Of a stretch of DNA of 64,000 nt, positions 38,326-56,341 are shown in pieces. Position numbers and translations under genes: made by a program. The stretch spans positions 352,001-416,000 of the forward strand of contig CAWFJJ010000028.1 in assembly GCA_963816185.1 (NCBI GenBank), in the 5' to 3' direction. Within the stretch, counting starts at the first letter, position 1. Each line of letters starts with the position of its first letter. A model generated the notes under the pieces. It worked only from the letters and a program-made list of their open reading frames with translations. It did not search any database and was not told where the DNA came from. This DNA comes from Thermoanaerobaculia bacterium (GTDB lineage: Bacteria > Acidobacteriota > Thermoanaerobaculia > UBA5066).

Positions 38326-39324
38326 TTACATTCCTCCGGCTCGGAGTTTCGCGGCGGCGAGGAGCGCTCCGATGTCGTCCGGCACCGGCGCCGTGAACGT
38401 CATCTTCTCGCCCGTGGTGGGATGCTTCAACGTCAGGCGCCAGGCGTGAAGCGCCTGACGCGGAAAGCTCCGGCAGAGATCGCGCAGAAGCTCGTCCTTG
38501 ATCCCTTTCCATCGGGGCGAGCCGTACGTGGGATCGCCGACGATGGGAAGGCGGAGCGCCTTGAGGTGAACGCGAATTTGATGCGTCCGGCCGGTGACGA
38601 GCGTGCACTTGAGGAGAGAAAGACCGGAGTGGGAACCAGAAGACTCGGAGAGGATTTCATAGAAGGTGGTCGACGGACGCCCCTCGGTTTTCGAGGCCGC
38701 CATGCGTTTCCTGTCGGCGGGATCGCGGCGGATCTTCAGGTCGATGCGCCCCTTTCTCAGCGGCGCCTTGCCGTAAACCAGGGCCAGATATTCCTTTTCC
38801 AGGAATCTCTCTCTTATGGCTCTCCCAAGGACAGCCATGGCCGTTTCGGTCTTTGCGACGACGAGGACCCCCGATGTGTCTTTGTCGAGCCGATGGACGA
38901 GTCCGGGCCTGTCGGCTGGCCCGGCCCACTCCTTCGAGCGATGGAGTAAGGCGTTCACGAGGGTCCCGTCGCGGTGCCCGACGGCAGGGTGCACGACGAG
39001 GCCGGGCGGCTTGTTCAGAACGAGGATTTCGGAATCTTCGTAAAGGGCGGAGAGAGGGATGTCCTGCGCCACGAGGTCGGGACGAGGAGGGGCAGGCGCG
39101 GGAAGGTGGACCAGGATCTCGTCTCCCGTCTTGACCTTCTCGGAGCTCTTCTTCGGTCTTCTCCCTCCGACCGAAACACAGCCGCTCTCGATCCACTCCT
39201 GGATCTTCGTCCGCGAGGCCTCGGGCAGGTCATTCAGGTGCCGGAGCAGAACTCTGTCGAGGCGCTCGCCCGCGTCGCCCCGGTCGGCGCGGATGGTGCG
39301 CCGCGGCCGGGGCGCGTCGGTCAC
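38326..39324 (-). CDS. rluD: RluA-family 23S rRNA pseudouridine synthase
   Basis: S4-like RLD...SR..IQ, NKPPGLVVHP, HRLDKDTSG, TGRTHQIRVH, RQALHA. Confidence 0.9.
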   Translation of the reverse strand: MTDAPRPRRTIRADRGDAGERLDRVLLRHLNDLPEASRTKIQEWIESGCVSVGGRRPKKSSEKVKTGDEILVHLPAPAPPRPDLVAQDIPLSALYEDSEILVLNKPPGLVVHPAVGHRDGTLVNALLHRSKEWAGPADRPGLVHRLDKDTSGVLVVAKTETAMAVLGRAIRERFLEKEYLALVYGKAPLRKGRIDLKIRRDPADRKRMAASKTEGRPSTTFYEILSESSGSHSGLSLLKCTLVTGRTHQIRVHLKALRLPIVGDPTYGSPRWKGIKDELLRDLCRSFPRQALHAWRLTLKHPTTGEKMTFTAPVPDDIGALLAAAKLRAGGM

Positions 39325-40598: not shown

Positions 40599-43500
40599 CT
40601 ACTCGCCGACGACGCGGCGGCAGCGCGCGCAGATGCCGCTCGGCTCGACGTCGGTACGCACCTGCCAGCAACGCGGACATTTGGCACCCTCGGCGGGACG
40701 GACGGCGATGGCGTCCTCTTCGCCCTCCCGCACGACCGACGGTGTTCCAAAGACGTCGGCGAGTTCTTCTTCTGAGAGGGAAAGAACGGCGAGCGCTTCG
40801 TCGACGGCGCCGCCCCGCCCCACGACGACGGTGGCCTGAGAGGCGGACCCGACTTTCCCCTCTCTTCGGAGCGGCTCGAGGACCTGCAGGAAGTCCGCTC
40901 GGGCCGCCAGGATGCGTCGCCATGCCTTTCTTTCATTCGAAGAGATCTCCGGGAGCTTTACATCGTCCCAGCTTCGCAGGAAAAGCGCGGAGGGATCCGC
41001 CGCATTTCCCGGGATCGCCTCCCAGATCTCTTCCGCCGTGAACGGGCAGATCGGCGAAAGGCCGAGGGCGATGGTCCTGGCGAGCTGGTAGGCGGCTGTC
41101 TGCGCCGAGCGCCGCACGGGATCGTCCGCAGCGAGGACGTAAAGCACGTCCTTTCGCACGTCACACCAGAACGCCGACAGGTCCGTCGTCACGAGATCGA
41201 GAAGGCGTCGCGACACCACGTGGAACGCATAGTCGCGGTAGGCGTCCCTCGCATCGCCGGCAAATTGCGCCGCGACGTCGAGCACCCACCGGTCGAGGGG
41301 CTCGAGTCGGCTTTCCGGCACGCTGTCCTTCGCCGGGTCGAAGTCGGACAGGTTCGAGAGGAGAAAGCGCGCCGTGTTGCGGATCTTGCGGTAAGCCTCG
41401 GACGTCCGCTTGAGGATCTCGTCGGAGACGGGGTCGTCGTTCGTGTAGTCGGCGGAAGCGACCCAGAGCCGCAGCACGTCGGCGCCGTCCTTCTTGATGA
41501 CGTCGTGCGGGTCCACCGTGTTTCCGAGCGACTTCGACATCTTCCGGCCGTCTCCCGCGACGACGAACCCGTGTGTGAGCACCGCGTCGTAGGGCGCGCG
41601 GTTCGTCAGCGCGACGGAGGTCAGCAACGACGACTGGAACCACCCGCGGTGCTGGTCGTGCCCCTCGAGGTACATGACCGGGACCGGGGGGTGTGCCGTG
41701 TACGGGTCCTCGATACCGTAGTCGCCCGAGCGGAGGACGGCCGCGTGCGACACCCCCGAGTCGAACCACACGTCGAGGATGTCCTTGACCTTCTCGAAGT
41801 TCGCACCGCCACAGCGCGCGCAGGAAGCAGAGGACGTCGAGGTCGACGATGAAGAGAAAGAAGAAGAGGAAGAGAAAGAGGAAGACGAAGAATTGCTTAG
41901 AAAGTAAGACGGGGGGAAGGCGGCGTCGTCATACCAGGCATCCGCTCCGTGTTCGCGAAATGTCCCTCTTACCCTTTCAAAGAATTCTCCTCTTTCTTTC
42001 CTCTCTCGATCGCTGACTTCTCCCTCGACCGACGGGTAGTGCGAAACGACGCCCTTCTCCATGCAATCGGTGCACCTCAGAAACGTGATGGGCGAGCCCC
42101 AGCGGCGCTGGCGGGAGATCGTCCACTCGAGGCGGTTGTCGACCATCGCGCCGATGCGGTTTTCGCTGTAGGACGGGATCCACTCCACCCGGTCGTGGAT
42201 CTCGGACATCGCGCGCTCGCGGAGTGCGCCGAGGTCGATGAACCACTGGTGGGTCGCGCGGAAGATGACGGGCTGCTTGCACCGCCAGCAATGGGGGTAG
42301 GAGTGAGAAAGAGATTTCTTCGAAAGGAGGAGAGATCCGGAGTGGTCCTTGCCCGGACGTCCCGCGAAGCTCGACGCCTCGGCGGGCGTCGTCGCGAGCG
42401 CCGCGAGGACCGCGTCGTTCGCGCTCTCGTCGGGCGTTTTCGGGATGACGACTCTCTTCCCGCGCAGGAACTCCGGCGCGTTCGCGTCGTAGTACCCGCC
42501 TTCGTCGACCGGGCAGAGAGCCGGGTCGTCCACCTTGAAGGCGTGCCTCCTCACGACCTCGTAGTCGTCGCGCCCGTGGCCCGGAGCCGTGTGGACGAGG
42601 CCCGTGCCGTCCGTCGTCGACACGTGCTCGCCGAGGAGGAATCCGAAATTGGTTTCGGACGACGCGGCGAAGGGACGTCGATAGACGAGGCCGGCGGCGC
42701 CTAGGGTCGCGCCGCTTTTCTTCGAATGGGGAAGAGGGCTGGCGTCGCGCCAGCCGAGCGCGGCCGTCACTTGCGGGACGAGCGCAGCCGCGACGAGATA
42801 AGCGGCCCCAGGCTCGTCTTCCTTTCTGAGAAGAATGTATTCGATGCTCGGGCCAAGGGCGATCGCCCGGTTTGCGGGGAGAGTCCACGGCGTGGTCGTC
42901 CAGATGAGGGCGAACAGCCGCAGTGTGCCGGTCGCGTTTGCGAGGTCGGGCCACACCGCTTTCCAGGAATCTCCGTCCAACGGCATCGCGACGTAGACCG
43001 ACGGATCGGTCCTGTCCTCGTACTCGACCTCCGCTTCCGCGAGGGCGGTGCGGTCGCGCACGCACCAGAGGACGCTCTTGAATCCGAACGTGACGAGCCC
43101 TCTGTCCACGAAGCCGCCGAAAGCCCTGGCGATCTCGGACTGATAGGAGAAGTCCATCGTGCGATAGGGCGCCTCCCACCTGCCGAGGATTCCGAGGCGC
43201 TTGAAGTCGGAGCGCTGGTCGTCGATCCACCTCTCCGCGAACTTCCGGCACGCCCGGCGGATCGCGACGTCGGACATCTCGCGCTTCTTCGGCCCGAGCT
43301 CCTTGTCCACGCCCAGCTCGATGGGGAGGCCGTGGCAGTCCCAGCCGGGCACGTACGGTGCGTCGAGGCCCGCGAGAGTCTTGCTGCGGACGACGAGGTC
43401 CTTCAGGATCTTGTTCATCGCCGTGCCGATGTGGATCTTGTTGTTCGCGTACGGCGGGCCGTCGTGCAGGAGGAAACGCGGGGCGCCGGCGCGCGCTCGC

Positions 43501-43631
43501 CGGATCCGCCCGTAGAGGTCGTCCGCGTGCCACCGCGCGAGGCGGACGGGCTCCCGTTTCGGCAGATCCGCCTTCATCGGGAACCCCGTCTTCGGAAGAA
43601 GGAGCGTCGATTTCCAGTCGGTTCCGATCAT
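40599..43631 (-). CDS. ileS: Isoleucine--tRNA ligase (type 1)
   Basis: HDGPPYAN, HIGT (HIGH equivalent), GWDCHGLP, WTTTPWTLP, WTISRQR, DQHRGWF, KMSKS, C-terminal KCPRCW zinc finger. Confidence 0.97.
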   Translation of the reverse strand: MIGTDWKSTLLLPKTGFPMKADLPKREPVRLARWHADDLYGRIRRARAGAPRFLLHDGPPYANNKIHIGTAMNKILKDLVVRSKTLAGLDAPYVPGWDCHGLPIELGVDKELGPKKREMSDVAIRRACRKFAERWIDDQRSDFKRLGILGRWEAPYRTMDFSYQSEIARAFGGFVDRGLVTFGFKSVLWCVRDRTALAEAEVEYEDRTDPSVYVAMPLDGDSWKAVWPDLANATGTLRLFALIWTTTPWTLPANRAIALGPSIEYILLRKEDEPGAAYLVAAALVPQVTAALGWRDASPLPHSKKSGATLGAAGLVYRRPFAASSETNFGFLLGEHVSTTDGTGLVHTAPGHGRDDYEVVRRHAFKVDDPALCPVDEGGYYDANAPEFLRGKRVVIPKTPDESANDAVLAALATTPAEASSFAGRPGKDHSGSLLLSKKSLSHSYPHCWRCKQPVIFRATHQWFIDLGALRERAMSEIHDRVEWIPSYSENRIGAMVDNRLEWTISRQRRWGSPITFLRCTDCMEKGVVSHYPSVEGEVSDRERKERGEFFERVRGTFREHGADAWYDDAAFPPSYFLSNSSSSSFSSSSSFSSSSTSTSSASCARCGGANFEKVKDILDVWFDSGVSHAAVLRSGDYGIEDPYTAHPPVPVMYLEGHDQHRGWFQSSLLTSVALTNRAPYDAVLTHGFVVAGDGRKMSKSLGNTVDPHDVIKKDGADVLRLWVASADYTNDDPVSDEILKRTSEAYRKIRNTARFLLSNLSDFDPAKDSVPESRLEPLDRWVLDVAAQFAGDARDAYRDYAFHVVSRRLLDLVTTDLSAFWCDVRKDVLYVLAADDPVRRSAQTAAYQLARTIALGLSPICPFTAEEIWEAIPGNAADPSALFLRSWDDVKLPEISSNERKAWRRILAARADFLQVLEPLRREGKVGSASQATVVVGRGGAVDEALAVLSLSEEELADVFGTPSVVREGEEDAIAVRPAEGAKCPRCWQVRTDVEPSGICARCRRVVGE
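41851..41904. repeat. Module C purine tract inside ileS (encodes a poly-Ser insertion)
   Basis: GAAGAGAAAG-type tract ending GAAGAATTGCTTAGAAAG; this 18-mer matches leuS 49775-49792 at 17/18 positions. Confidence 0.75.
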
Positions 43632-43743
43632 GGTGAAGCCGCGAAGGTTACGCGGTCGGCCCGTGCCGGGCAAGGCTCAGGCCTTCATTTGATTCCAACT
43701 GATCATGTGGCGGACGCAAACGATCCCTTAGACTGCGCCGCGC

Positions 43744-44688
43744 ATGGCGAGAATCCGGACAGGAGTCGTGGGATGCGGCTATCTCGGCCGGCACCACGCT
43801 CGGATCCTCACGGAGCTCGCCGACTCCGAGCCCGTCGGCTTCGTCGAGCCGGACGACGCGACGGCGGCCACGATCGAGGCCGCGCACGGTCCGAAAGGAC
43901 TCGCTCGGAGGCCTTCCGTCAAAGAGCTCCTGGGAGCGGGCGCGATGGCGGTCGTGGTGGCGTCTCCGACCTCCACCCACGCCGCGGTGGCGGAAGAGCT
44001 CCTCGCCGGGGGCGCCGACGTCATGGTCGAAAAGCCGATCACGGTCACCCTGGCCGAGGCCGACCGTCTCGTCGCTCTCGCGCGGGCCAAGGGCCGCATC
44101 CTTCAGGTCGGCCACATCGAGCGCTTCAATCCGGCGGTGGCCGCCGTGCGCCCGCTCGTCACGGATGTGAAGTTCATCGAGGCGCACCGGCTCGGGGTCT
44201 TCGTCCCGCGCGCGCTCGACGTGGACGTCGTCCTCGACCTCCTCGTCCACGACCTCGACATCGCGCTCGACCTCGTGGGCAAGCCGGTCACGGAGATCCG
44301 GGCGGTCGGCGTGCCGATCCTGAGCGAGAAGATCGACATTGCCTCGGTGCGCCTTTCCTTCGAGGGCGGGTGCGTGGCGAACCTGACCGCCTCGCGCGTC
44401 TCACAGGACAAGACGCGGAAGTTCCGGTTCTTCCAGCCCGACTGGTACTTCTCGATCGACACTCAGCACCGGGATGTGACGGCATTTCGTCTCGACCGCC
44501 TCAGCGGCCCGCCGCGCATCGTGCCGTGGCCCGTGACGGTCGAGCCCGCGGATCCTCTCACCGCCGAGGACTCCGCGTTCCTGAAGGCCTGCGCGGAGCG
44601 CACCGAGCCGGAAGTGACGGGCGAAGCCGGCCGCGCGGCGCTCAAGCTGGCGCTCGACATTCTCGAGGAGATGGGGCGGGGACGATGA
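43744..44688 (+). CDS. Gfo/Idh/MocA family oxidoreductase (GnnA-like)
   Basis: GVVGCGYLGRHH, VEKP, VGHIERFNPA, LDLLVHDLD, TASRVS. Confidence 0.9.
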   Translation: MARIRTGVVGCGYLGRHHARILTELADSEPVGFVEPDDATAATIEAAHGPKGLARRPSVKELLGAGAMAVVVASPTSTHAAVAEELLAGGADVMVEKPITVTLAEADRLVALARAKGRILQVGHIERFNPAVAAVRPLVTDVKFIEAHRLGVFVPRALDVDVVLDLLVHDLDIALDLVGKPVTEIRAVGVPILSEKIDIASVRLSFEGGCVANLTASRVSQDKTRKFRFFQPDWYFSIDTQHRDVTAFRLDRLSGPPRIVPWPVTVEPADPLTAEDSAFLKACAERTEPEVTGEAGRAALKLALDILEEMGRGR

Positions 44689-45719
44689 AGAGAAAAGGGA
44701 ACAAGAACTCTTTCTTATATACGGCGGCTGCTGATGCAGCCGCCGATAGAAGAAAGTCTTCTCCCCGAATGGTCGATGTCAAGGGCGTGCTTCGCGCGCC
44801 GCGCAGCGGTCGCAGACCCTTGACATCGGCCATTCGGGGAATACGGTCGTCGACCAAGTCTTTGCGGCGCATCGGCCTCATCGGCGGCTCGGGTCTTTAT
44901 TCACTTCCCGGCCTCGAGATCACTCGCGAAATCGGGCTTTCGACGCCCTTCGGCGACCCCTCCGACTCTTTCTTTCTAGGAAGTCTCTCTTCGGTCCCTG
45001 TCGCATTTCTCGCGCGTCACGGACGTCACCATTCGTTCCTGCCTTCCGAGATCAACTACCGAGCGAACGTCTGGGGGTTCAGGAAGCTCGGCTGCTCGTG
45101 GCTTCTCTCGGCCTCGGCCTGCGGCTCGATGAAGGAGTCCTACGCGCCGGCCGACATCGTCCTGCCGGACCAGTTCCTCGACTTGACGAAGCGGCGCGTC
45201 TCGACGTTCTTCGGAGACGGCTGTGCGGCGCACGTGTCGTTCGCGCACCCCGTTTCGGCCGTTCTTCTCGACGCTGTGGAGGCGGCCGCGAAGGCGGAAG
45301 GGGCCGTGTGCCATCGAGGCGGAACGTACGTGTGCATCGAAGGACCCCAGTTCTCGACGAAGGCCGAGTCTCTGCTCTACCGTTCCTGGGGCGCGGACGT
45401 GATCGGGATGACGAACGCCACCGAGGCAAAGCTCTGCCGCGAGGCGGGGATCGGCTATGCGTCGATGGCGCTCGTCACGGACTACGACTGCTGGCACGAG
45501 GAGCAGGCCGCGGTCTCGGTGGAAGCTGTCCTCGACGTCCTGAAAAGAAACGCCGGCACCGCGAATCGCGTCCTCGCGAACGCCGTTCGCCGCCTCGACC
45601 CGGACAGCCCGAGCGACTGCGCGGACGCCCTCGAGTGGGCCGTTCTCACGCCGAGGAACCGGATCAGTCCCGCCGCCTCGAAGCGCCTCGCGCTTCTTCT
45701 GAACAAGGACGAGAGATGA
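44685..45719 (+). CDS. mtnP: S-methyl-5'-thioadenosine phosphorylase, with a repeat-derived N-terminal extension if started at ATG 44685 (alternative TTG 44862)
   Basis: IGLIGGSGLY, TPFGDPSD, RHGRHH, NYRAN, EGPQFST, IGMT, VTDYDCW; ATGA overlap with the upstream gene. Confidence 0.92.
   Translation: MKRKGNKNSFLYTAAADAAADRRKSSPRMVDVKGVLRAPRSGRRPLTSAIRGIRSSTKSLRRIGLIGGSGLYSLPGLEITREIGLSTPFGDPSDSFFLGSLSSVPVAFLARHGRHHSFLPSEINYRANVWGFRKLGCSWLLSASACGSMKESYAPADIVLPDQFLDLTKRRVSTFFGDGCAAHVSFAHPVSAVLLDAVEAAAKAEGAVCHRGGTYVCIEGPQFSTKAESLLYRSWGADVIGMTNATEAKLCREAGIGYASMALVTDYDCWHEEQAAVSVEAVLDVLKRNAGTANRVLANAVRRLDPDSPSDCADALEWAVLTPRNRISPAASKRLALLLNKDER
44706..44840. repeat. Composite palindromic repeat copy 1: hairpin A (44722-44745) plus cruciform B (44762-44840)
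   Basis: A: CGGCGGCTGC-tgat-GCAGCCGCCG. B: TCCCCGAATGGTCGATGTCAAGGG...CCCTTGACATCGGCCATTCGGGGA. Near-identical to 58373-58490. Confidence 0.92.
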
Positions 45720-46726
45720 CCGCACGCCGCATCGTCGTTACCGGGTCCGTCGCCTACGACTACCTGATGACCTTCCCGGGGAAATTCCTCGACGTCGTCA
45801 TCCCCGACCGCATGGACCGCCTCTCGGTGTCGTTCCTCGTGGACTCCATGCGGAAAGTGCGGGGGGGCGTGGCTCCGAACATCGCCTACACGCTCGCGCT
45901 CCTCGGCCTCAGGCCCCTCGTCATGGCGACGGCGGGCGTCGACGCGCTCGATTACAGCCGGTGGCTCTCCGAACAGGGGGTCGACACCTCATCCCTGCAC
46001 ATTTGCGACGATCTTTTCACGGCCTCGTTCTTCGTCTCGACCGACGAATCGCAGAACCAGATCGCGACGTTCTATGCGGGGGCGATGGCGCGGGCGGCGA
46101 CGCTGTCCTTCCGCGAGCTCTCGCCGAGCAGCGTGAGCCTCGCGATCATCGCGCCGAACGCTCCCGAGGCGATGGCGAAATACGCGACGGAGTGCCGCGA
46201 GCTCCACATCGCATTCGCGTACGACCCGAGTCAGCAGGTGGCGCGGCTTTCGGGTGACGAGATTCTCGAGGGGCTGCGGGGCGCGGCGATGCTCATCGCG
46301 AACGAGTACGAGTTCGGCGTCATCGAGCTCAAGACCGGCCTCTCGGAAGCCGCGGTCCTCTCGCACGTGCCGGTTCTCATCGTGACGCGAGGCGCCGAAG
46401 GTTCCACGATCGCGCTCCGGGGCGGCCAGCCGGAGGCTGCCGCCGGCGTGTCGACGTTCCGCATTCCGCCCGCCCGCCTCCGCGGGCCCGCAGTCGATCC
46501 GACGGGCGTGGGAGATGCGTTCCGCGGGGGCCTCCTTGCCGCACGCCACCACGGCCTGCCGTGGGAGGTCGCGGGCCGCGTGGGAAGCGTGGCAGCCGCC
46601 TACTGCCTGGAAGCCCTCGGACCGCAGCCACCGCGGTATGCCGTCGCCGACTTCATCGCGCGTTACGGCGAGAACTTCGGCTCCGAAGGAGCTCACTCGC
46701 GTGTCAGCGACCTCGCGCCGCGGTGA
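45716..46726 (+). CDS. PfkB-family carbohydrate/adenosine kinase
   Basis: VTGSVAYD, GGVAPNIAY, NQIATFYAGAM, DPSQQ, NEYE, VDPTGVGDAFRGG. Confidence 0.92.
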   Translation: MTARRIVVTGSVAYDYLMTFPGKFLDVVIPDRMDRLSVSFLVDSMRKVRGGVAPNIAYTLALLGLRPLVMATAGVDALDYSRWLSEQGVDTSSLHICDDLFTASFFVSTDESQNQIATFYAGAMARAATLSFRELSPSSVSLAIIAPNAPEAMAKYATECRELHIAFAYDPSQQVARLSGDEILEGLRGAAMLIANEYEFGVIELKTGLSEAAVLSHVPVLIVTRGAEGSTIALRGGQPEAAAGVSTFRIPPARLRGPAVDPTGVGDAFRGGLLAARHHGLPWEVAGRVGSVAAAYCLEALGPQPPRYAVADFIARYGENFGSEGAHSRVSDLAPR

Positions 46727-46729
46727 AGC

Positions 46730-46738
46730 TGATACACT
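46730..46738 (+). promoter_or_regulatory. Extended -10 box (TGaTACACT), 10 nt before the ribH ATG
   Basis: TGn-TAnnnT pattern with no SD between it and ATG 46749. Confidence 0.55.
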
Positions 46739-46748
46739 CCTGGGTCCA

Positions 46749-47246
46749 ATGAACGTGATCGAAGGGCACCTTTCCTCGGCGGGCCGGCGCTTCGGCGTCG
46801 TGGCGGCGCGCACGAACGAGCTCGTCGTGTCGCGCCTCCTCGAAGGCGCCCTCGACGCCTTCCGCCGGACCGGTGCTGCCGACGAGGACGTCGTCGTGGT
46901 GCGCGCCCCGGGCGCGTGGGAGCTTCCCCTCACCCTTCGCGATCTCGCGCGCTCGGGCAAGTTCGACGCGCTCGTGGCGCTCGGCGCCGTCGTTCGCGGC
47001 GGCACGCCGCATTTCGAGTACGTGGCGAGCCAGGCGGCGAAAGGTGTTTTCCAGGTCTCCCTCGAGCTCGACCTCCCCGTGGCGCTCGGAGTCCTGACGT
47101 GCGACACGCTCGAGCAGGCGCTCGAGCGCTCGGGCGCCAAGGGCGGGAACAAAGGCTTCGAGGCGGCGATGGCCGCGGTCGAGGCCGCCGATCTCCGGGC
47201 CCGTCTGAAGAAAGCCCCCGCTCGCTCGTCGCGCCCGACACGCTGA
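46749..47246 (+). CDS. ribH: 6,7-dimethyl-8-ribityllumazine synthase
   Basis: PGAWELP, LGAVVRGGTPHFEYV, GVLT, NKGFEAA; lies upstream of nusB. Confidence 0.95.
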   Translation: MNVIEGHLSSAGRRFGVVAARTNELVVSRLLEGALDAFRRTGAADEDVVVVRAPGAWELPLTLRDLARSGKFDALVALGAVVRGGTPHFEYVASQAAKGVFQVSLELDLPVALGVLTCDTLEQALERSGAKGGNKGFEAAMAAVEAADLRARLKKAPARSSRPTR

Positions 47247-47264
47247 GAGCCGGACGGAGGACGC

Positions 47265-47705
47265 GTGAGCGGCCGCCGGCGGAAGTCGCGAGAGCTGGCG
47301 CTTCAGCTCCTCTACCAGAACGACCTCGCAGGGACGCCGCCCGAGGAGATGTTCCAATACACCGAGGAGTACGTCCTCGCGAAACCCGAGGTCCAGGAGT
47401 ACGCCGAACGCCTCGTCCGGGGCACCCTTTCGCGCCGCGACGAGCTGGACGCGAAGCTCTCCGAGCGCTCCGAGCACTGGCGCCTCGGGCGTATGGCCGC
47501 CGTGGACCGAAATCTTCTTCGCCTCGCGCTCTACGAGCTCCTTTATGAAGAGGACACCCCGGACCCCGTCGTGATCGACGAAGCCGTGGAAATCGCGAAG
47601 AAGTTCTCGACGCCGTCCTCGGGGCCGTTCGTGAACGGCGTCCTGGACGGCATCCGCCGCGCCACGTTCGGCCCGCGCGTTCGGAGCGGGGGAGAAAGCG
47701 GATGA
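47265..47705 (+). CDS. nusB: Transcription antitermination factor NusB
   Basis: RRKSRELALQLLY, W...R...VDRNLLRLA, IDEAVEIAKKF, FVNGVLD. Confidence 0.95.
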   Translation: MSGRRRKSRELALQLLYQNDLAGTPPEEMFQYTEEYVLAKPEVQEYAERLVRGTLSRRDELDAKLSERSEHWRLGRMAAVDRNLLRLALYELLYEEDTPDPVVIDEAVEIAKKFSTPSSGPFVNGVLDGIRRATFGPRVRSGGESG

Positions 47706-48598
47706 CGCCTCGGGCGCTGCTTCTCACCCTCCTCTTCGCGTGGGGCGTCCCGGCCGCGGGGCAGGACTCCGGCGAGTGGGCCCGATACAGGCTCGATGGA
47801 CCCGCGCCGTGGCGGTATGCGCAGGCCGTGGAAGCGGCCGGCTATCGCGTCGTGCTCTCTTCGGCGGACGGCAAGACGCTGGAAGCGCGCGTGGAGGTGT
47901 CCGCCGCACCGTTCACGGCGGACGCGCCGTTTCCGCCCGCCCCGTCGACCCTCTCCGCCGAAGCGCGGACGGCGCTCGCCGATCCCCTCGCGGACGATCC
48001 GGACCTCGACTTCCTGTCCGAGAGGCTTCTCGCGGGCTCGAGGACGACGCTCGAGGCCGTCGAACGGGTCATCGCGTTCACGGCGCACCGCGTTCGCTAT
48101 GCGCTGCCGGACGGCTCGCCCGAGACGGCCTCCCGAACGCTCCGCCAGCGCCGCGGCTCGTGCGTGGGACGCTCGCTCCTGGCGGCCGAGCTGCTGCTTC
48201 GCTCCGGGGTTCCGGCCCGGCAGGTGACCGGCATTCTGGCCGCGCAGCGCGCCCGGGAGCTCACTCCGGAGTCGCGCGCCGTGTTCAACGCGGAGCTGGG
48301 CGGCGTGCGGCACCGCTGGATCGAGGTCTTCGTGCCAGGCCTGGGCTGGGTGCCTTCCGATCCGAGCGGGCTCGCGAACACGGTGACGTCGAGGCATCTC
48401 GCGCTCGAAAGGCAGCCCCCCGCCGGTTTTCACGTGGACGTCGCCGGTCGCTCCGCCGAGCTGAAGCGGCCCGTTCTCGAGACCGCCGAAGGCGGCCTGA
48501 CGCTCTACCGGCCGCGCGGGGCGAGCATCGTGGAGGCCGTTGAAGGGGCGCCGCTCGACCCGCGGGCGCTCGCGGCCCCGCCGCCCGCGCGCCGCTGA
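47702..48598 (+). CDS. Secreted transglutaminase-like domain protein
   Basis: Signal peptide; GSCVGRS, HRWIEV and WVPSDP give a Cys-His-Asp triad. Confidence 0.82.
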   Translation: MTPRALLLTLLFAWGVPAAGQDSGEWARYRLDGPAPWRYAQAVEAAGYRVVLSSADGKTLEARVEVSAAPFTADAPFPPAPSTLSAEARTALADPLADDPDLDFLSERLLAGSRTTLEAVERVIAFTAHRVRYALPDGSPETASRTLRQRRGSCVGRSLLAAELLLRSGVPARQVTGILAAQRARELTPESRAVFNAELGGVRHRWIEVFVPGLGWVPSDPSGLANTVTSRHLALERQPPAGFHVDVAGRSAELKRPVLETAEGGLTLYRPRGASIVEAVEGAPLDPRALAAPPPARR

Positions 48599-48634
48599 CG
48601 CCGCGCCTCTCCGTCGTTTACACTCGCCGACTCG

Positions 48635-51190
48635 ATGCAACGCACCGCGACGGCGACCACGAAGGCCGACGAAATCCTCAGGATCGAGGCGAAGTGGCGC
48701 GACCGCTGGGAGGCGGACCGCGCCGCATTCGTGGATACGACGAAGCCCGCGGGGGACGGAACATACCTCCTCGTCATGCTTCCTTATCCCTCGGGCGACC
48801 GCCTGCACGTCGGGCACGCGCGCACATATTTCCTGACCGACGCGCTCCAGCGCTTCCTGCGCCAGACGGGCGTGACCGTGTTCTGCCCGATGGGCTGGGA
48901 CGCGTTCGGCCTGCCTGCCGAGAACTACGCGATCCAGAAGGGCATCCATCCGCGCACCTCCACGCTCGCGAACATCGCGGCCATGAAGGAGCAGTTCCGG
49001 ACGTGGGGCGTTCTTTACGACTGGACGAAGGAAGTCACGACCTGCGAGCCCGAGTACTACCGCTGGAACCAGTGGTTCTTCCTGAGGCTCCTCGAAAAAG
49101 GCCTGGCGGTCCGCAGGAAGGCCGCGGTGAACTGGTGCCCGTCGTGCGAGACCGTCCTCGCGAACGAGCAGGCCGAGGGCGGCGTCTGCGACCGGTGCGG
49201 CACTGCGGTGGTGCCCCGCGAGCTCGAGCAGTGGTTCCTGAAGATCACCGACTACGCCGAGCGCCTGCTGGACGGCCTCGACACGCTCCGCAAATGGCCC
49301 GAGAAGGTCGTCACGATGCAGCGCAACTGGATCGGCAAATCCACGGGCGCCGATCTGGATTTCGCGATCCCGAAGCTGAACGAGACGGTCCGCGTCTTCA
49401 CGACGCGCCCGGACACCGTCTTCGGCGCCACGGCGCTCATCCTCGCGCCCGAGCACGCGCTCGTCCCGCGCCTTCTCGAGGGCCATCCGAAGCGGGCCGA
49501 GCTGGAGGCCTGGGTCAATTCCGTGCGCAGCCAGGAGCGCATCGTCCGCGAGGCCGAGGGAGCCGAGAAGGACGGCCGCGACACCGGCCGCACGGCGATC
49601 AACCCCTTCACGGGGAAGGAAGTGCCCGTGTGGCTCGCGAACTTCGTCATCGCCGACTACGGCACGGGCGCGCTCATGGCGGTACCCGCGCACGACACGC
49701 GCGACTTCGAGTTCGCGAAGAAGTACGGCATCCCCATCGTCAGGGTGATCGAAGAGGGGAAGAGAGAAAAGAAGGAAGATTTGCTTAGAAAGGAAGAGGG
49801 GGAGGGCGCAGCGGCGGCCAGCGGCGACGCGGCTTTGACAGGCCTTCCATACACGGGCGAGGGCCCGCTCATTGCCTCCGGACCATTCACAGGAATCTTC
49901 TCTTCTCTTGCCCGAGAATTCATCGCAGCCGATGCCGCGAATCGCGGCATCGGCGGGCCGCGCGTGCGGTATCGGCTCCGCGACTGGCTCATTTCGCGTC
50001 AGCGCTACTGGGGCACGCCGATTCCCATGATCCACTGCGAGAAGGATGGCTGGGTGAGTGTGCCGGAGAAGGACCTGCCGGTCGTGCTGCCGCCTGACGC
50101 GCCGTTCACGGGCAAGGGCGGCAATCCGCTCGAGAAGGTCGCTTCGTTCGTCCAGACGACGTGCCCTTCGTGCGGAGGCCCGGCCAGGCGCGAGACGGAC
50201 ACGATGGACACGTTCGTGGACTCGTCCTGGTATTTCCTCCGGTACATTGACCCGAAGAACGGCGCGGCGCCCTTCGATCCCGCAATCGTGAGGGAATGGG
50301 CGCCGGTCGACCAGTACATCGGCGGCATCGAGCACGCGATCCTCCACCTCCTGTACGCGCGGTTCTTCACCCGCATCCTGAAGGACCTCGGCCTCGTGAC
50401 GTTCGAGGAGCCGTTTTCGGCTCTCTTCAACCAGGGCATGATCACGCGCCTGTCCCCGACGGGCCGCGTGGAGAAAATGTCGAAGTCGCGGGGCAACTCG
50501 GTGTCTCTCGACTCGCTCATCGCGGAGAAGGGAGCCGACGCCGTGCGCGCGTTCGTCCTCTTCCTCGGGCCGCCGGAGAAGGACGCCGAGTGGAGCGACG
50601 AGGGCATCAGCGGGCCGGAGCGCTTCCTCTGGCGCGTGCGGGGCGCCGTGGACCGGTTCCTCGCGACGGGCGCCGATCCGCAAGCACAGCCGGCGGCGGC
50701 CGACACGCCCGCGGCGCGCGCGCGCCACATGGCGATCAAGAAGGTCACGGAGGACTTCCGGGCGTTCTCGTTCCACACGGCCGTGGCGCACCTCATGGAG
50801 CTGCTCAACGGCGCGGCGGTCCTCGTGAACGACGCGGGCGCGGACGCGGGGGAGACCGCGACGACGCTGCGCACGCTCGTCACGCTCCTCCATCCCATCG
50901 CGCCGCACCTGTCGGAGGAGCTGCACGAGAGGATGGGCGGCACGAAGAGCCTCCTTGCCTCGGGCTGGCCGACCTACGATCCGGCGCTCGCCGAGATGGA
51001 AGAGGCTTCGATCGCCGTGCAGGTGTCGGGGAAGGTGCGTGCCGAGATCAAGCTGAGAAGAGGATCTTCCGAGAAAGAGGCGCTGGCCGCCGCCCAGGCT
51101 GAGGCGGCGCTCTCGCGGTGGCTGGAAGGAAAGCAGATCGTCAAAACCATCTGGGTTCAGGATCGACTGTTGAACATCGTCGTGCGATGA
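48635..51190 (+). CDS. leuS: Leucine--tRNA ligase
   Basis: [59 protein letters not shown]. Confidence 0.97.
49751..49800. repeat. Module C purine tract inside leuS (encodes [16 protein letters not shown])
   Basis: Purine tract containing GAAGATTTGCTTAGAAAG; shared with ileS and with the reverse complement of 58538-58575. Confidence 0.75.
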
Positions 51191-51194
51191 GGAG

Positions 51195-51896
51195 ATGCTG
51201 CTTTCGGATTTTTCTGATATGCGGCGGCGGCTGATGCAGCCGCCGATGGATGGCAACGTGCCCTCGGCTGGCCGGAGTCAAGGGTCTTCGACCGCTACGC
51301 GGCGCGCGAAGCGCGCCCTTGACACCGACCAGCCGAGAGCTATCCCTCTCTCTTTTTCCTTCAAAGAAATCTCTCTTTCTTCTCTTTCCTTTCTTGTCTT
51401 TCTTGCCTTCGCTGCCTCTTCGTCCGGCTGCGGGTACACGCTCGTGGGGACCGGGTCGAGCGCGGTGCCCGTCGGCGTCAAGACGGTATACGTGCCGACG
51501 TTCATCAATGAGACGACGGTCGTGGGCCTCGAGCAGCGCCTCACGGACGCCGTCATTCGCGAGCTTTCCGCGCGTGGCCGTCTCAAGCCCGTGTCGGACA
51601 GGGGGGCGGCGGATTCGGAGCTGTCCGGGCAGCTGACATCCGCGTCGGTCGCCCCCGTCCGCTTCGACGCGAACGGAATCGCCGTCGAATATCAGGTGAC
51701 CGTTACCGGAAAGATCGTTCTCACCGAGAAGGCCACCGACAAGCCCATCTTCTCCGAGCCCGCTTACCTGTTCCGGCAGCCATACACCGTGCCGTCGAGC
51801 GCCAGCTCGTATTACGACCGAGAGCGCGAGGCCATCGAGGCGATGGCCCGCCCCTTCGCGCAGAACCTCGTCACGACGATCCTGGAAGGATTCTGA
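51195..51896 (+). CDS. lptE: LPS-assembly lipoprotein LptE with a repeat-derived long signal region
   Basis: SGCGY at 51423-51437, 'VYVPTFINET..GLEQRLTDAV', position after leuS. Confidence 0.85.
   Translation: MLLSDFSDMRRRLMQPPMDGNVPSAGRSQGSSTATRRAKRALDTDQPRAIPLSFSFKEISLSSLSFLVFLAFAASSSGCGYTLVGTGSSAVPVGVKTVYVPTFINETTVVGLEQRLTDAVIRELSARGRLKPVSDRGAADSELSGQLTSASVAPVRFDANGIAVEYQVTVTGKIVLTEKATDKPIFSEPAYLFRQPYTVPSSASSYYDREREAIEAMARPFAQNLVTTILEGF
51211..51410. repeat. Composite palindromic repeat copy 2: A (51222-51245), inverted B (51263-51337), pyrimidine tract C
   Basis: TTCTGATATGCGGCGGCGGC-tgat-GCAGCCGCCG; GTCAAGGG...CCCTTGAC with the loop reverse-complemented relative to copies 1 and 4; TTCAAAGAAATCTCT. 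Confidence 0.9.
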
Positions 51897-52089
51897 AAAA
51901 GGCGCGAGGAAACGTATCGGTTTCGCGGCGGCTGGTTTCTTGCCGATATCGAGTCTCACTCACATTCAGGATACAATGGCAGATGTTGAGAGGGAGTGAC
52001 GTCGCTCGTCTCCCTCCGTCGCGGGATTGCTGTCGCGTATTTGGGTAGCCAAACGGCGCGCGACCCGCTCCCCCTCATAGGGGGTCGTC

Positions 52090-54571
52090 TTGCGCGATAT
52101 CACGCTGCGAGAGCGGGCCGACGAATCGATTGAGAAGCTCGTCCGCGCCGTGGAGCAGGCGAAGAACGTCATCCTCATGACAGACCCGAACGGGACCATC
52201 ACGTACGTCAATCCCGCTTTCGAGGAGATCTACGGCTATTCCATGCAGGAGGCGCTCGGCAAGACGCCACGGATCCTGAAGAGCGGCCAACACGACAAGG
52301 ATTTCTACAAACGTTTCTGGCAGAGGCTGCTGGCCGGCGAAACGGTGCGAGAGCAGTTCGTCAACAAGACCCGAGATGGCCGGCTCGTCACCGTGGAAGG
52401 TCTCGTCAGTCCCGTCCTCGATGCCCAGGGGCAGCGCAGCGGTTTCATCGCCGTGCAGGAGGACATCACCGAGCGAAAGCGCTCCGAAGCGCGGATTCTG
52501 CAGCTCAACCGCCTCCTCAGGACGATCTCCGAGGTCAATCAGCTCATCGTCCGTGCGCAGGACCGCGCGGCTCTTCTCTCGGAGGCCTGTCGTGTTCTCG
52601 TGGACCACGGCGGCTTCGAGTTGGTCTGGATCGGTTTCGTCGACGCCGCGTCACAGGTTGTCGTTCCCGCGGCGCGAGCAGGTGTACGCCCCGAGTACCT
52701 CGCTGGAATCGTCGTCCGGTGCGACGACACGCCGGAGGGGCGAGGACCGGTGGGCACGGCGATCCGGACGGGACGGTTCGCCGTCGTGGAAGACGTCGAA
52801 ACGGATCCGTCGGCTGCTCCCTGGCGCGAGCGAATGCTCGCGTACGGGTTCAAGACCGTCGCGGCTTTTCCTATTCGGAGCGGGGGCGCCGTGAGGGGCG
52901 CTCTCGGGGTGTACGCCTCGAAAGCTGTTGAGATCGGCCACGAGGAAACGACTCTCCTCGACGAGCTCGCGCACGACATCGGTTTTGCGCTCCAATCGCT
53001 CGAGAACCGCGACGAGCGGCGTCGGGCCGAGGAGGCCCTGGCAAGAAGCGAGCTCTACTTTCGATCTCTCTTCGAGAACGCACAGGACATCATTACGGTC
53101 ATCGACGCCGGGGGACTGATCCTCTTCGAGAGCCCGTCCGTCGAGCGGATCATGGGGCTTCCGCCGGACGCGTACGTTGGAAAGAGCGCGTTCGAGTTCG
53201 TCCATCCCGACGACGTGGCCGCCGTTCAGGCCGCCCTGCAGCGCGCCTCCGCCAACCCGGGGCTGCCCCAGTCCGCACTGTTTCGCTTTCGCCACGCCGA
53301 CGGCTCCTGGAGGACCCTCGAGGGGATCGGCAGCCTCCTGACGGGCGAATCTTCTTTCCGGTTCGTGGTGAACTCCCGTGACGTGACCGAAAGCCGCGCC
53401 CTGGAGCAGCAGCTTCGGCAGGCACAGAAGATGGAGGCCGTCGGGCGGCTTGCGGGCGGAGTGGCGCACGACTTCAACAACCTGCTGACCGCGATCCTGG
53501 GCTATTCGGACCTGCTGGCGGGGCAGGCCGGCGAGGGGAGCCCGCTGCGGGAATCCATCGAGGAGATCCGAAAAGCGGGGGAACGGGCCGCTTCGCTCAC
53601 TCGGCAGCTCCTGGCCTTCAGCCGCAAGCAGGTTCTGGAGCCCGTGGTGCTGCGGTTGAACGACCTGGTCGAAAACGTCGAGAAAATGCTGCGGCGCGTG
53701 ATCGGAGAGGACGTACGGCTGGTCACGCGTCTGGGCGACTCCGTGGGCAACGTCCGGGCGGATCCGGGACAGCTCGAGCAGGTGATCGTGAACCTCGCCG
53801 TCAACGCCCGTGACGCCATGCCGAAGGGCGGCACGCTGACGATCGAGACGGCCGATGTCGAGCTGGACGGCGTCTACGCGCAGAGACACGCCATGGTTCC
53901 TCCCGGCCGCTACACGATGCTGGCGGTCAGCGACACGGGCGTCGGGATGGATGCGGCCACGCAGGAGAGGATCTTCGAGCCCTTCTTCACGACGAAGGAG
54001 AAGGGCAAGGGCACGGGCCTCGGGCTCTCGATGGTATACGGCATCGTCAAGCAGTCAGGGGGATACATCTGGGTCTACAGCGAACCGGGGAAGGGGACGA
54101 CCTTCAAGGTGTATCTGCCGACGGTCGGGGAAGGCGGTCTCGGATCTTCCAGCGAGATCCGCGGAGTTTCATCCGGCCGTCGGAGCCGAAACGGTCCTGC
54201 TCGTCGAGGACGAGCCGGCGATCCGCACTCTCGCCCGCCGGGTTCTCGTGGAGCGCGGCTACCGCGTGCTCGAGGCGGGCAGCGGGACGGACGCCCTGGA
54301 ACAGGTCCGCGCAGAAAAGGGGCCGATTCACCTGCTCCTCACGGACCTCGGGATGCCGGACATGGGCGGAATGGAGGTCGCATCCGGCGTGCAAGAGCTT
54401 CATCCAGACATCCGCGTGCTCTTCATGTCCGGGTATACCGACGACGGGGTGGTCCGCAACGGGCTCCTCGAACCGAGACGGGCTTTCCTGCAGAAGCCCT
54501 TCACGCCGTCCGCCCTTGCGCGCAAGGTGCGCGAGGTGCTGGACGCGCCTGAGCAAGGCTCGGCCGCCTGA
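52090..54571 (+). CDS. PAS-GAF-PAS hybrid histidine kinase with receiver domain (CckA-like); frameshift near 54150
   Basis: [39 protein letters not shown]; the receiver (VLLVEDE, LLTD, QKPF) is in ORF 53855..54571. Confidence 0.9.
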
Positions 54572-54575
54572 GCAC

Positions 54576-55124
54576 TCACTTCCCGGCAGGGCGGGGGCTG
54601 CCTGTTTCCAGAAAGTTCTTGAGCCTTCCCACCTGCTCGCCGACCACTTCGTCCACGATCGGCGCGATCTTCTCGAATCCTCCCGCCATATAGCCGCCGA
54701 TGCCGTACGTGACCACGAGCTTCGTGCCATCTTCGGCTTTCGCGAGGTCCCACGTCATGCTCCCGGCGAGCCCCAGGCCCTGAAGGGGGCCGATGGCGCC
54801 GGTCATGCGCAGCGCCTTGCCCGGGCCTGCGTAGACGACGGTCATGTGCTGGACCCCGCCGCCGTCCGGGAACCTCTCGCAAAAGCAGCCGCCCGGAACG
54901 GCGGCGATCGAGAGGTTCCTGGCATCGTGTGAAAACGTGTGCTCCGGATTCCACCAGCTCCCTACCTTCGCGGTGAGCGTGTCGTAGACGACTCCGGGGG
55001 TGGCCTTGATCGCGACTTCGTGCTTCACGGCGAAACCGCTCGGGCCGACGCTCATGACTTCCGCGGAAAGGGGCGCGGAGAGAAGCGCCACCGCGCAGAC
55101 CAGAATGGATGGAAGTTCTTTCAT
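54576..55124 (-). CDS. Secreted SRPBCC/START-fold protein
   Basis: Signal peptide, 'WWNPEHTFS...GGCFCE...LRMTGAIGPLQ'. Confidence 0.75.
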   Translation of the reverse strand: MKELPSILVCAVALLSAPLSAEVMSVGPSGFAVKHEVAIKATPGVVYDTLTAKVGSWWNPEHTFSHDARNLSIAAVPGGCFCERFPDGGGVQHMTVVYAGPGKALRMTGAIGPLQGLGLAGSMTWDLAKAEDGTKLVVTYGIGGYMAGGFEKIAPIVDEVVGEQVGRLKNFLETGSPRPAGK

Positions 55125-55166
55125 TTCTGATATTCGGGGCTGCTGATGCAGCCCCGATAGTAGAAA
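55124..55166. repeat. Repeat copy 3: hairpin A only (55134-55157)
   Basis: TTTCTGATAT-TCGGGGCTGC-tgat-GCAGCCCCGA-TAG. Confidence 0.85.
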
Positions 55167-55183
55167 CTCTTCTCGCGAGAGCT

Positions 55184-55459
55184 TTATTTCGCGGCGGCTT
55201 TTTTCGCCTTGTTCACGGTCTTCGAAATCCGCGATTTCAGGCGGGACGCCGTCTTCCTGTGGAGGACGCCTTTGCGGACGGCGACGTCGAGCTCGGAGAC
55301 CGCGTTCGAGAGGAAGCTGCCGACCTTTTCGGCGTCGGTTTCCGCCGTCCTGCGGAGATTCTTCACGACGTTGCGGACCTGGGTGACGACGGAGCGGTTG
55401 CGGGCCCGGCGGCGGTCGCTCTGCGCGGCGCGCTTCTTGGCTTGCTTGGTGTTCGCCAT
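55184..55459 (-). CDS. rpsT: 30S ribosomal protein S20
   Basis: MANTKQAKKR...RRARN...KGVLHRKTASRLKSR. Confidence 0.96.
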   Translation of the reverse strand: MANTKQAKKRAAQSDRRRARNRSVVTQVRNVVKNLRRTAETDAEKVGSFLSNAVSELDVAVRKGVLHRKTASRLKSRISKTVNKAKKAAAK

Positions 55460-55492
55460 GTGGTTTCGATGAGGCCTTTCTCTGGAGAGCGT

Positions 55493-56341
55493 TCAGCGGG
55501 AATCGCCGCCGAGGGACTTGAGGCGCTGACGCGCGCTCTTGGCCTCGTCGGAGCCGGGGAACTGGTTGACGACGAAGTTCAGCTCGACCATGGCCTGGGC
55601 CTTCTCGCCGAGCTCGAGATGGGCGATTCCCTTTTTGAGGTGCGCAGCCGGGGCTTTGTCGCTCTGCGGATACGTGCGAAACAGCTTGTCGAACGAGGCG
55701 ATCGCCTCGCGCGGCTTCTTCTGCGCGGACCAGCACTCTCCGGCCCAGTAGAGGGCGTCGTCGGAGAGATCGGTGCGCGGGAACTTCTCGGCGTAGTCCT
55801 CGAAACCCTGCCGCGCGAGATCGTATCGGCCGCGCTGATAGTCGGCCGTAGCCTGCGCGAAGAGGTCCGCCGGCGTGATACCTCCCCCGCGCGGGCCCGC
55901 GGCCGCCGGGACGGGACCGGCAGAGGACGGAGGCGGACCCTGCGGACCCGGAGAGGTCGCCGGCGGGGCGATCACGGCCCCGGCGAAGGGATGCCCCTGC
56001 GTCTCGGCGATCTGCTGGGAGAGCTGCGTGAGGCGCCGGTTCGCATCCTCGAGCTTCCCGGCGAGGGCCTGCATCTCGCGCGTCAGGTCGTCGAACCTCG
56101 TGCCCAGATCGGCGTTCGAGCGGAGGAGCGTCTGCGCCTGCTTGGCCAGGGTCTCGTTCAGCTTCGCAACCTCCTCCTTGGAGGAAGACTGCTTCGAGAC
56201 GGCGTCGACTTTCTTCTCGACCGTCGAAAGGTGCTGGTGAAGGCCGTCGATGTCGCTGCCGCTGACGCAGCCGGTCACCGCCGCGAGAAGTCCCGCGGTC
56301 AGGGCAAGGCGGCCGGCTCGCGTGACGCGCGGGCGGGTCAC
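55493..56341 (-). CDS. cpoB: Tol-Pal system protein YbgF/CpoB
   Basis: Lipoprotein signal (VTGC), coiled coil, TPR (ALYWAGE, YPQSDK, AHLKKG); lies after pal. Confidence 0.9.
   Translation of the reverse strand: MTRPRVTRAGRLALTAGLLAAVTGCVSGSDIDGLHQHLSTVEKKVDAVSKQSSSKEEVAKLNETLAKQAQTLLRSNADLGTRFDDLTREMQALAGKLEDANRRLTQLSQQIAETQGHPFAGAVIAPPATSPGPQGPPPSSAGPVPAAAGPRGGGITPADLFAQATADYQRGRYDLARQGFEDYAEKFPRTDLSDDALYWAGECWSAQKKPREAIASFDKLFRTYPQSDKAPAAHLKKGIAHLELGEKAQAMVELNFVVNQFPGSDEAKSARQRLKSLGGDSR

Follow-up and report, generated by a model that had tools for sequence, protein, structure and literature searches.

The Rickettsia palindromic elements (RPEs) are units of ~150 bp that are conserved lengthwise, each encode a conserved peptide, and are described as lying in frame and being translated inside unrelated housekeeping genes in a way compatible with protein function (PMC10969869). 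Here, we analysed a 64,000-nucleotide stretch of DNA (the window; positions 352001–416000 of contig C28) from the genome of an uncultured soil Acidobacteriota bacterium (G000; 5.09 Mb, 30 contigs, 67% G+C, 94.9% complete), in which copies of one oriented tract are translated in both ileS and leuS, with ileS reading it backwards and leuS forwards. This tract forms the head of the C arm, which is repeated at dispersed sites, and is not an isolated pair of copies. Like RPEs, C arms lie in frame at variable or loop positions (in ileS, leuS, lptE and alr), but they differ in being conserved over about 20–45 bp only, with unique or native DNA between them, in being read on both strands and in being mostly intergenic.

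Other described systems also share some properties with the C arms. Repetitive extragenic palindromic (REP) sequences and REPINs with their RAYT transposases are reported as inverted short repeats with a spacer that number in the hundreds, are inherited vertically and persist for long within a lineage (PMC3116915, PMC3337134), all of which resembles the C arms; the C arm, however, is not a hairpin, shows no pair-specific complementarity and is accompanied by no Y1 gene that we could find in G000. The uptake signals of the Pasteurellaceae and Neisseriaceae, as described, are likewise short, oriented and lineage-specific motifs, occurring in hundreds of copies, in both orientations and at tolerant coding positions (PMC2817400), whereas C arms are mostly intergenic, less dense, paired convergently at ~75 bp and preceded by a variable purine run. 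[quoted passage not shown] Finally, the NTS/SRM repeats served by Ssn single-strand nucleases are oriented, lineage-specific, hundreds in number and clustered around genes, and they set a precedent for a dispersed repeat being read by a protein dedicated to it; the NTS is described as a ~30 bp hairpin with a conserved palindrome, and the nuclease gene as usually repeat-flanked (PMC11893778). The C arm differs in this respect too, as no such gene was seen among 14 arm-flanked candidates judged by their first 60 residues. The family lacks defining features of RPEs, REPINs and MITEs alike. We lean towards reading the C arm as a lineage-specific dispersed DNA signal under purifying selection, a putative recognition site for a DNA-binding or DNA-processing factor.

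The C arm is an oriented motif with several hundred copies

The 18-mer GAAGAATTGCTTAGAAAG lies at 41887–41904 in the minus-strand gene ileS and GAAGATTTGCTTAGAAAG at 49775–49792 in the plus-strand gene leuS, both in + strand orientation and each preceded by a purine run. These copies had been noticed in an original prediction made from the letters of the window, which also pointed to a similar intergenic "module C"; this resemblance was borne out, as the reverse complement of 58541–58560 is GAAGAGGATTTTCTTAGAAG. The 18-mer pattern matched the window twice at up to 3 mismatches (0.02 expected) and matched the genome 3, 11, 49 and 108 times at 0, 1, 2 and 3 mismatches, respectively. The predicted excess over shuffled controls was found, since the 49 matches with at most 2 mismatches compare with 0 in each of five genomes in which triplets were shuffled inside 300-nt windows. 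In the same controls, the 11-mer TTCTTAGAAGG (201 copies in the genome) averaged 0.2, the core 9-mer TTCTTAGAA (337 copies) 3.6, and TTCTTAGAA(A/G)G with at most one mismatch (685 arms) 28. Both starting copies lie in low-complexity loops, as would be expected if two purine-rich, low-complexity coding tracts had come to look alike by chance; this explanation was already refuted by the absence of 18-mer matches from the shuffled controls, and a position-specific consensus common to 337 to 685 copies also speaks against it, such that we give it next to no credence.

The identity of the two copies at 17 of 18 positions, noted in the original prediction, is real but partly coincidental, as both carry a minority variant, TGCTTAGAA (48 copies in the genome, compared to 337 of TTCTTAGAA), which is inherited vertically at each site. 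This TG variant was followed site by site in leuS and ileS orthologues, and homogenisation from a master copy is therefore disfavoured.

The arm is an asymmetric motif of ~20 bp, GAT-TTCTT(A/C/T)GAA-(G/A)G-(T/G)GAAGAG, with a purine run of variable length on its 5' side. In profiles of the 337 copies, and also of 300 paired arms, information was confined to about −5 to +20, with none of the lengthwise conservation (about 100–150 bp) of RPEs; the consensus was RRRWT-TTCTT(A/C/T)GAA-(G/A)G-(T/G)GAA-GAGGG, with a purine bias reaching about 20 nt upstream. The homopurine run spans 0 to about 60 nt and presumably lengthens and shortens via slippage. A purine-rich upstream run of at least 12 nt was present at 273 of 684 arms, compared to 3.8% of random sites, and 59 of the 684 had a run of at least 30 nt.

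The repeated unit is the arm and not the pair

Adjacent arms less than 400 bp apart were mostly convergent (171 cases, compared to 25 divergent, 26 ++ and 28 −−), with spacing that peaked at 72–76 bp and had a tail. About half of all arms occur in such convergent pairs and about half are single. The pairs bracket unique, unstructured G+C-rich DNA, other repeat modules or native coding sequence. An all-against-all BLAST of 150 pair cores returned 10 core–core matches, mostly from duplicated genes or contigs, and a second match anywhere in the genome was found for 13 of 147 cores. The two arms of a pair were no more similar to each other than to arms of other pairs (z −1.0 to +0.4, n = 144), showed no covariation beyond the consensus and had purine runs of uncorrelated length (rho 0.01). 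Because cores are unique, paired arms are no more alike and run lengths are uncorrelated, the repeated unit is the arm. The G+C content of cores (0.72) is nearer than that of arms (0.48) to the G+C of freely evolving third codon positions (GC3 0.871 in this genome).

Terminal inverted repeats at a preferred distance are also what a non-autonomous mobile element of MITE or REPIN type would leave, with arms as the ends, moved in trans by a transposase and preserved for its binding, and cores that drifted with age. This is a less probable but serious alternative to a selected signal, and the presence/absence differences described below keep it so. Intergenic enrichment and association with other repeat modules agree with it, and 14 back-to-back divergent arms resemble joined ends. 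Against it, no two cores are alike except in gene duplicates, no recent copies were found and about half of the arms are single. Furthermore, the Y1 (RAYT) transposase family (Pfam PF01797, Y1_Tnp) gave 0 matches in this 95%-complete genome, and controls matched in 6 of 14 genomes. An autonomous element with the same ends was not found among 97 repeated segments of at least 500 bp; an arm lay within 150 bp of an end in 4 of the 97, with no consistent pattern.

The 14 back-to-back cases, among the 25 divergent ones, form the palindrome CCTTCTAAGAA-GATC-TTCTTAGAAGG (e.g. C30:444538–444563). One core (C28:225118–225240) is a member of another repeat family of about 75–100 bp, with about 12 other sites at 76–98% identity on six contigs; this family overlaps none of the 56 tRNA/tmRNA genes predicted by ARAGORN. 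An association of the arms with tRNA genes was rejected, as none of these 56 genes is enclosed by paired arms.

C arms are shared by two genera

The exact 11-mer occurred 37–267 times per genome in all 29 genomes of the genus and 1–31 times in all 8 genomes of a sister genus (g11). In the family's other eight genera (26 genomes) it occurred 0–1 times, as it did in genomes of two other families of the order (12 were searched, of which G019 and G024 are unpublished, and the statement holds for the other ten). Forward and reverse motif counts were close in most genomes. Four sites read in a g11 genome had the same arms, runs, unique cores and paired architecture, and arms are retained at orthologous positions across the genus and as far as the sister genus. 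The genus and outgroup genomes represent one per species, many are incomplete, and kin are not independent.

Arms in ileS keep rare codons over ancestral residues

The ileS copy of the 18-mer turned out to be one half of an inverted pair, its partner having been overlooked in the original prediction. In window coordinates, the features of ileS are:

40599–43673, minus strand: open reading frame (ORF) of ileS, encoding IleRS (Pfam tRNA-synt_1 and Anticodon_1); probable start ATG at 43631
41851–41916, plus strand: C arm 1, antisense to ileS; purine run 41851–41893, motif TGCTTAGAAAG at 41894–41904, inner part TAAGACGGGGGG
41917–41963, minus strand: core between the ileS arms, native IleRS sequence TFREHGADAWYDDAAF
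41964–42007, minus strand: C arm 2, sense to ileS; CTTTCAAAGAA at 41974–41984 on the plus strand, i.e. TTCTTTGAAAG on the gene strand, read as ERKERGEFFERVRG
42316–42326, plus strand: third, weaker arm, antisense to ileS; TTCTTCGAAAG, read as LLLSKKSL just before HSYPHCWRC
42822–42832, minus strand: fourth, arm-like site, sense to ileS; TTCTCAGAAAG, read as ILLRKED

On the minus strand, arm 1 reads PPSYFLSN and then a Ser/Phe run (poly-Ser), and IleRS reads ...YFLSNSSSSSFSSSSSFSSSSTSTSSAS between RCTDC and SCARC. The motif of arm 2, 80 nt from that of arm 1, gives the peptide ERKERGEFFERV, and the pair encloses the conserved segment HGADAWYDD.

We compared 16 genus orthologues with an intact frame and ten outgroup orthologues (L020 and L021 from unpublished genomes). 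Both main arms were present in the genus orthologues: TTCTT(T/C)GAA occurred in 16/16 and was followed by A(G/A)G-GT(A/C/G) in 14/16, and TTT-CTA-AG was kept in 12/16. The core reads HGA(D/N)AWYDD in the genus and G(A/G)DAW(Y/F) in the ten outgroup orthologues. At the arm positions outgroup IleRS has FF(E/D/A/Q)xV and (D/E/S/A/H)FLP, with FF(E/D) encoded by TTC-TTC-GAG/GAC and FL by TTC-CTC. Because outgroups already have these residues, the ileS motif cores overlie ancestral residues, the left arm without any change in length. Additions specific to the genus are six residues before the left arm and, after the right arm, a poly-Ser run whose length differs between species, from 0 to about 20 residues. 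Native conserved coding sequence between the arms, and a left arm gained without length change, both count against a mobile element.

At residues invariant in all 16 genus orthologues, A/T-ending codons made up 0.67 of the arms (9 columns), compared to 0.10 of the rest of ileS (463 columns). Within the arms, AGA and GAA were kept in 16/16, TTT in 15/16, and GTA, TCT and CTA in 12/16 each. Persistence of such codons at a GC3 of 0.871 indicates a constraint at the DNA level. The original prediction had placed the constraint on the nucleic acid, and this was upheld, in that unrelated peptides are read from the same DNA, the family is mostly intergenic, and the ileS arms keep rare A/T-ending codons in 16/16 orthologues.

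The two outer sites were less conserved than the main arms and showed stepwise decay. Site 42316 has the same length as in outgroups and is decayed in most genus orthologues; site 42822 occurs in variant forms across the genus and has a 3-residue insertion relative to outgroups. When aligned to solved sequences, the arm-coded segments of IleRS and LeuRS fall at gaps or unaligned stretches, which, together with the limits of the Pfam domains, suggests that they are tolerated as floppy loops. In three relatives, L025 (G008), L026 (G006) and L030 (G007), ileS matched in several different frames, with the frame change in L025 located around the arm and poly-Ser region; these cases likely stem from indel errors in low-complexity assembly runs.

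Arms come and go in the leuS loop and the leuS-lptE spacer

Two C arms lie in or next to leuS:

48635–51190, plus strand: ORF of leuS, encoding LeuRS (Pfam)
49751–49806, plus strand: single C arm, sense to leuS; purine run 49751–49779, motif TGCTTAGAAAG at 49782–49792, inner part GAAGAGGGGGAGGG
51345–51402, minus strand: C arm with pyrimidine run; CCTTCAAAGAA at 51358–51368 on the plus strand, overlapping the signal-peptide coding part of lptE (FKEISLSSLSFLVFL...GC)

The leuS arm lies inside the LeuRS editing domain of Pfam (residues 230–415) and adjoins a gap of 19 residues that opens when it is aligned with the Thermus LeuRS structure 1H3N. The segment from HDxRD to RDWLISRQR was 87–88 residues long in 12 outgroup orthologues and ranged from 78 to 137 residues in 15 genus orthologues. 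Of these 15, four had no arm (e.g. VIEGDDLPYTGEG), four a single arm, three tandem arms and four an inverted pair, in which an arm and a unique core are followed by an inverted arm read as RDHSKKS. These differences are real gains, losses and duplications of arms in a permissive loop. The suggestion that the tract was inserted into tolerant loops thus held for the hypervariable leuS loop, where orthologues have anything between no arm and a complete inverted pair, but not for ileS, where the arms overlie ancestral residues and the poly-Ser run is the sole clear expansion.

Between leuS and lptE, four states were distinguished among 13 genus orthologues:

3/13: lptE start overlaps the leuS stop, with no element
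2/13: right-arm-like CCTTTCAAAGA(A/G)ATC alone, coding FKEI of the signal peptide
7/13: inserted pair, about 100 nt long, whose right arm runs on into native AAAGA(G/A)ATCTTCC
1/13: right arm together with modules A and B (G000)

Clean presence and absence among close species, in both the loop and the spacer, is the pattern expected of a mobile element, as is the replacement of window positions 44691–44868 by 50 other letters in contigs of relatives. However, no direct target-site duplication was visible when filled and empty leuS-lptE sites were compared by eye, although the TA inside TTCT-TA-GAAGG could pass for one. In G000 and L053, a frame with a start at the leuS stop crosses the inserted DNA and continues into LptE without interruption. 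In the window (51195–51896) this LptE frame stays open from the ATG adjoining the leuS stop across modules A, B and C; the match to the Pfam LptE domain starts at residue 95 of 233, and relatives start lptE at the leuS stop.

Arms in alr can predate the genus split or arise in place

The alanine racemase gene alr, identified by Pfam in the g11 genome, was compared between G000 and G039. In G000 it contains three exact motifs and a one-mismatch fourth site read as NFLEGEEG. Two of the exact motifs occupy the same positions in both genera: one, the FLEGVFQNF site, is TTC-TTA-GAA-GG(T/G)-GTA and encodes the FLEGVFQNFASAD segment, and the other, TCACCTTCTAAGAAATCTCTC, lies in antisense and is identical over 21 bases. 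The third is found in G000 alone, where IFLEGL replaces AFEEML of G039 at the same length, and the segment at the one-mismatch site is several residues longer in G000 than in G039. Together, the shared and the G000-only motifs show that arms can predate the genus split and can arise in place by substitution.

The original prediction further held that module C spreads on its own, and this was borne out in part at most. The leuS loop and the leuS-lptE spacer gain and lose arms between species, but cores are unrelated, no Y1 transposase and no insertion sequence with arm ends was found in the genome, the ileS and alr motifs overlie ancestral residues (FFE, FL, LEG), and length is unchanged at 3 of 4 compared arm sites (the ileS left arm and two alr sites). 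The two alr sites likewise argue against a mobile element.

Compared with its g11 orthologue, alr of G000 (C24:400300–400480; L065 1050–1180) leaves its frame after ...AIRARG and continues in a different one as GHRPSIIHTDNS..., next to an arm; an assembly error or a real frameshift would account for this.

Arms lie mainly at intergenic edges and without strand preference

Frame periodicity over 200 nt on each side was used to place the arms relative to genes. The same reading frame was found on both sides of 25 of 150 pairs (17%) and 56 of 382 singles (15%), compared to 1387 of 3000 random positions (46%). C arms are therefore not strictly extragenic in the manner of REPINs, and most have a coding signal on one side only, placing them mainly at intergenic edges. 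The share in frame inside genes is roughly 15–30%, in both orientations equally; a run read forward would give Glu/Lys/Arg-rich loops, and one read backward Ser/Phe/Leu-rich loops.

Placement bears on the idea that C arms are analogous to DNA uptake signals and accumulate by molecular drive through preferential uptake or recombination in competent cells. Arms that arise within coding sequence through substitutions where these are tolerated would resemble the uptake sequences described for Haemophilus and Neisseria (PMC2817400), and eight small contigs, three of them of low G+C, have no arms. However, 34–65% of uptake sequences are reported to lie in ORFs (PMC2817400), compared to arms at intergenic edges, the density of about 1 arm per 7 kb is a further point against the analogy, and neither the convergent pairing at 72–76 bp nor the one-sided purine run would be explained; we consider this reading unlikely. 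The densest stretch in the genome is C28:1–50000, with 29 arms in 50 kb and single genes with 3–4 arms each (e.g. C28:36554–37843 and 4968–6293).

Single arms faced coding DNA with the purine-run side in 153 cases and with the opposite side in 49. They showed no preference between gene starts (78) and gene ends (75). Singles with a coding signal on both flanks, a class that includes tandem-gene junctions, were sense in 36 cases and antisense in 36. These symmetries of orientation favour a double-stranded DNA feature over an RNA motif. A Chi- or KOPS-like strand bias was rejected, as 148 of 268 singles with local GC skew of at least 0.01 were co-oriented and 120 were not, a weak tendency. A role as ribosome-binding site was also rejected, with a handful of copies just upstream of a called start, several of which were artefacts of the motif's own TAG then GTG.

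An RNA-level element, which would either mimic a Shine-Dalgarno or anti-Shine-Dalgarno sequence or form a long purine/pyrimidine hairpin that RNase III processes, was considered in view of the complementarity of the sense arm to the 3' tail of 16S rRNA (CTTAGAAAGG occurs 68 times, compared to 10 for the reversed control). In addition, CACCTTCTAAGAAATCT, the arm in reverse complement, is similar to CACCTCCTTTCTAAGGGATCT at the 16S 3' end and spacer start (C1 445545–445580), and paired arms can fold together (mean z −2.7). The 36:36 split with respect to transcription, the lack of covariation between paired arms and their uncorrelated run lengths all oppose this explanation, as does the folding of the cores, which does not exceed that of random segments (z −0.23 vs −0.09). 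Also against it, the 5-mers enriched upstream of 474 starts include AGGAG and GGAGG, the usual ribosome-binding sequence. An Rfam scan of the whole window found no family at gathering score, and over 41700–59000 gave three sub-threshold chance matches. We regard an RNA-level role as very improbable. The folding values led us to reject a terminator role, and the absence of arm covariation and of run-length correlation a hairpin role.

A selected DNA signal and its alternatives

The uptake-signal and RNA-level readings account for fewer facts than a dispersed DNA signal under purifying selection. In the mechanism that we propose for the latter, the arm would be a double-stranded signal held by purifying selection, and its reader would most likely be a putative lineage-specific DNA-binding or DNA-processing protein. 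New arms could form by two routes, either through substitution at motif-like sites with a tolerant peptide (FLEG, LLRK, PSKK, F-L) or, in permissive loops, through short insertion and expansion of the run.

Several observations weigh against a selected recognition site. No reader protein was identified among the candidates examined in the genome, and the 14 genes with arms on both sides, judged by their first 60 residues, looked like ordinary metabolic genes with no obvious reader. A simple binding site leaves the purine run and the 72–76 bp pairing unexplained. Pair spacing showed no clear 10.5-bp peak of helical phasing; a weak peak near 9.5 bp was barely above the null and may reflect a single sharp mode. 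Presence and absence between close species fits a mobile element equally well as selection, and short-patch gene conversion, if it is ongoing, could at some sites be mistaken for selection. In addition, the gene calls are home-made and crude, covering 79% of the genome with over-extended 5' ends, and the genic fraction is bracketed for this reason.

A bolder proposal, which we hold tentatively and think rather doubtful, is that the arms are read-out sites of a lineage-specific chromosomal "punctuation" system, in which a protein machine would recognise the oriented signal of 20 bp, act on the convergent pairs around intergenic regions, and either produce the one-sided purine runs or tolerate them. 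Such a system would explain why about 700 A+T-rich sites are held against an equilibrium of 87% G+C, why rare codons are written into conserved peptides of essential enzymes and why two genera share the arms. Under this proposal, the likeness between the arm and the 16S rRNA gene's 3' end may be a clue to where the arm came from or to what reads it.

Under the selected-signal reading, a short DNA signal would override codon preference and shape loops of essential enzymes across a genus. In contrast to classical in-gene repeats, the arms alone are conserved here, often overwriting ancestral residues instead of being inserted, and this separates DNA-level selection from simple selfish insertion. 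With ~700 oriented sites, the family offers a tractable case for the coexistence of genome-wide DNA signals with protein coding and for finding the protein that would read them. For annotators, Glu/Lys-rich or Ser-rich low-complexity segments, spurious open frames and contig breaks are to be expected at arms.

Full-text searches of open-access literature with the 9-mer gave, among the matches listed, unrelated eukaryotic and viral papers only, and for Acidobacteria with REP or REPIN nothing on the C arm family among the matches listed.

Other arms, neighbouring modules and minor observations

The remaining arm-like sites and the two other modules of the window are:

38656–38666, plus strand: one-mismatch arm TTCATAGAAGG with a short purine run, outside the crude gene calls
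44972–44982, minus strand: degenerate arm-like site TTCCTAGAAAG with one mismatch, inside a PNP_UDP_1 phosphorylase gene, read as SFFLGSLSS
58505–58592, minus strand: two tandem C arms ("module C") between two minus-strand genes, with ACTTCTAAGAA at 58540–58550 and CTTTCAAAGAA at 58577–58587
44712–44750, 51210–51248 and 58361–58400: module A, a conserved hairpin GGCGGCTGC-ATCA-GCAGCCGCC, then GCATATGAGAAAGAAATC on one strand
44765–44848, 51268–51335 and 58408–58497: module B, palindromic, about 85 bp, GTCAAGGG...CCCTTGAC

At the 44972 site the Leu codon varies freely among orthologues, and there is therefore no detectable DNA constraint. Several small contigs of G000 match stretches of large contigs as duplicates with at least 88% identity, which suggests a strain mixture or assembly redundancy. 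The 12-mers A12/T12 gave 1071 overlapping counts in this 67% G+C genome, so that a few long homopolymer runs must exist. The contigs of relatives mentioned above came from two RNA and two DNA public libraries, mostly at 85–95% likeness, and are uninformative on expression or RNA ends in G000; no public sequencing run covered half of the stretch.

Module A occurs genome-wide in 31 copies at up to 3 mismatches, with 55 copies of its 3' half. At 58369 an internal ATG is the start codon of the downstream minus-strand gene, leaving no room for a ribosome-binding site, and in other copies this ATG has decayed to ATA or ATC. Of the copies of module B, 43 have a span of exactly 47 bp, and CCCTTGACW occurs 99 times. 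Module B usually lies between convergent C arms and adjoins module A; its TTGACA box is followed 16–17 nt later by TACGGT or AGATTT, an arrangement that is promoter-like on both strands.

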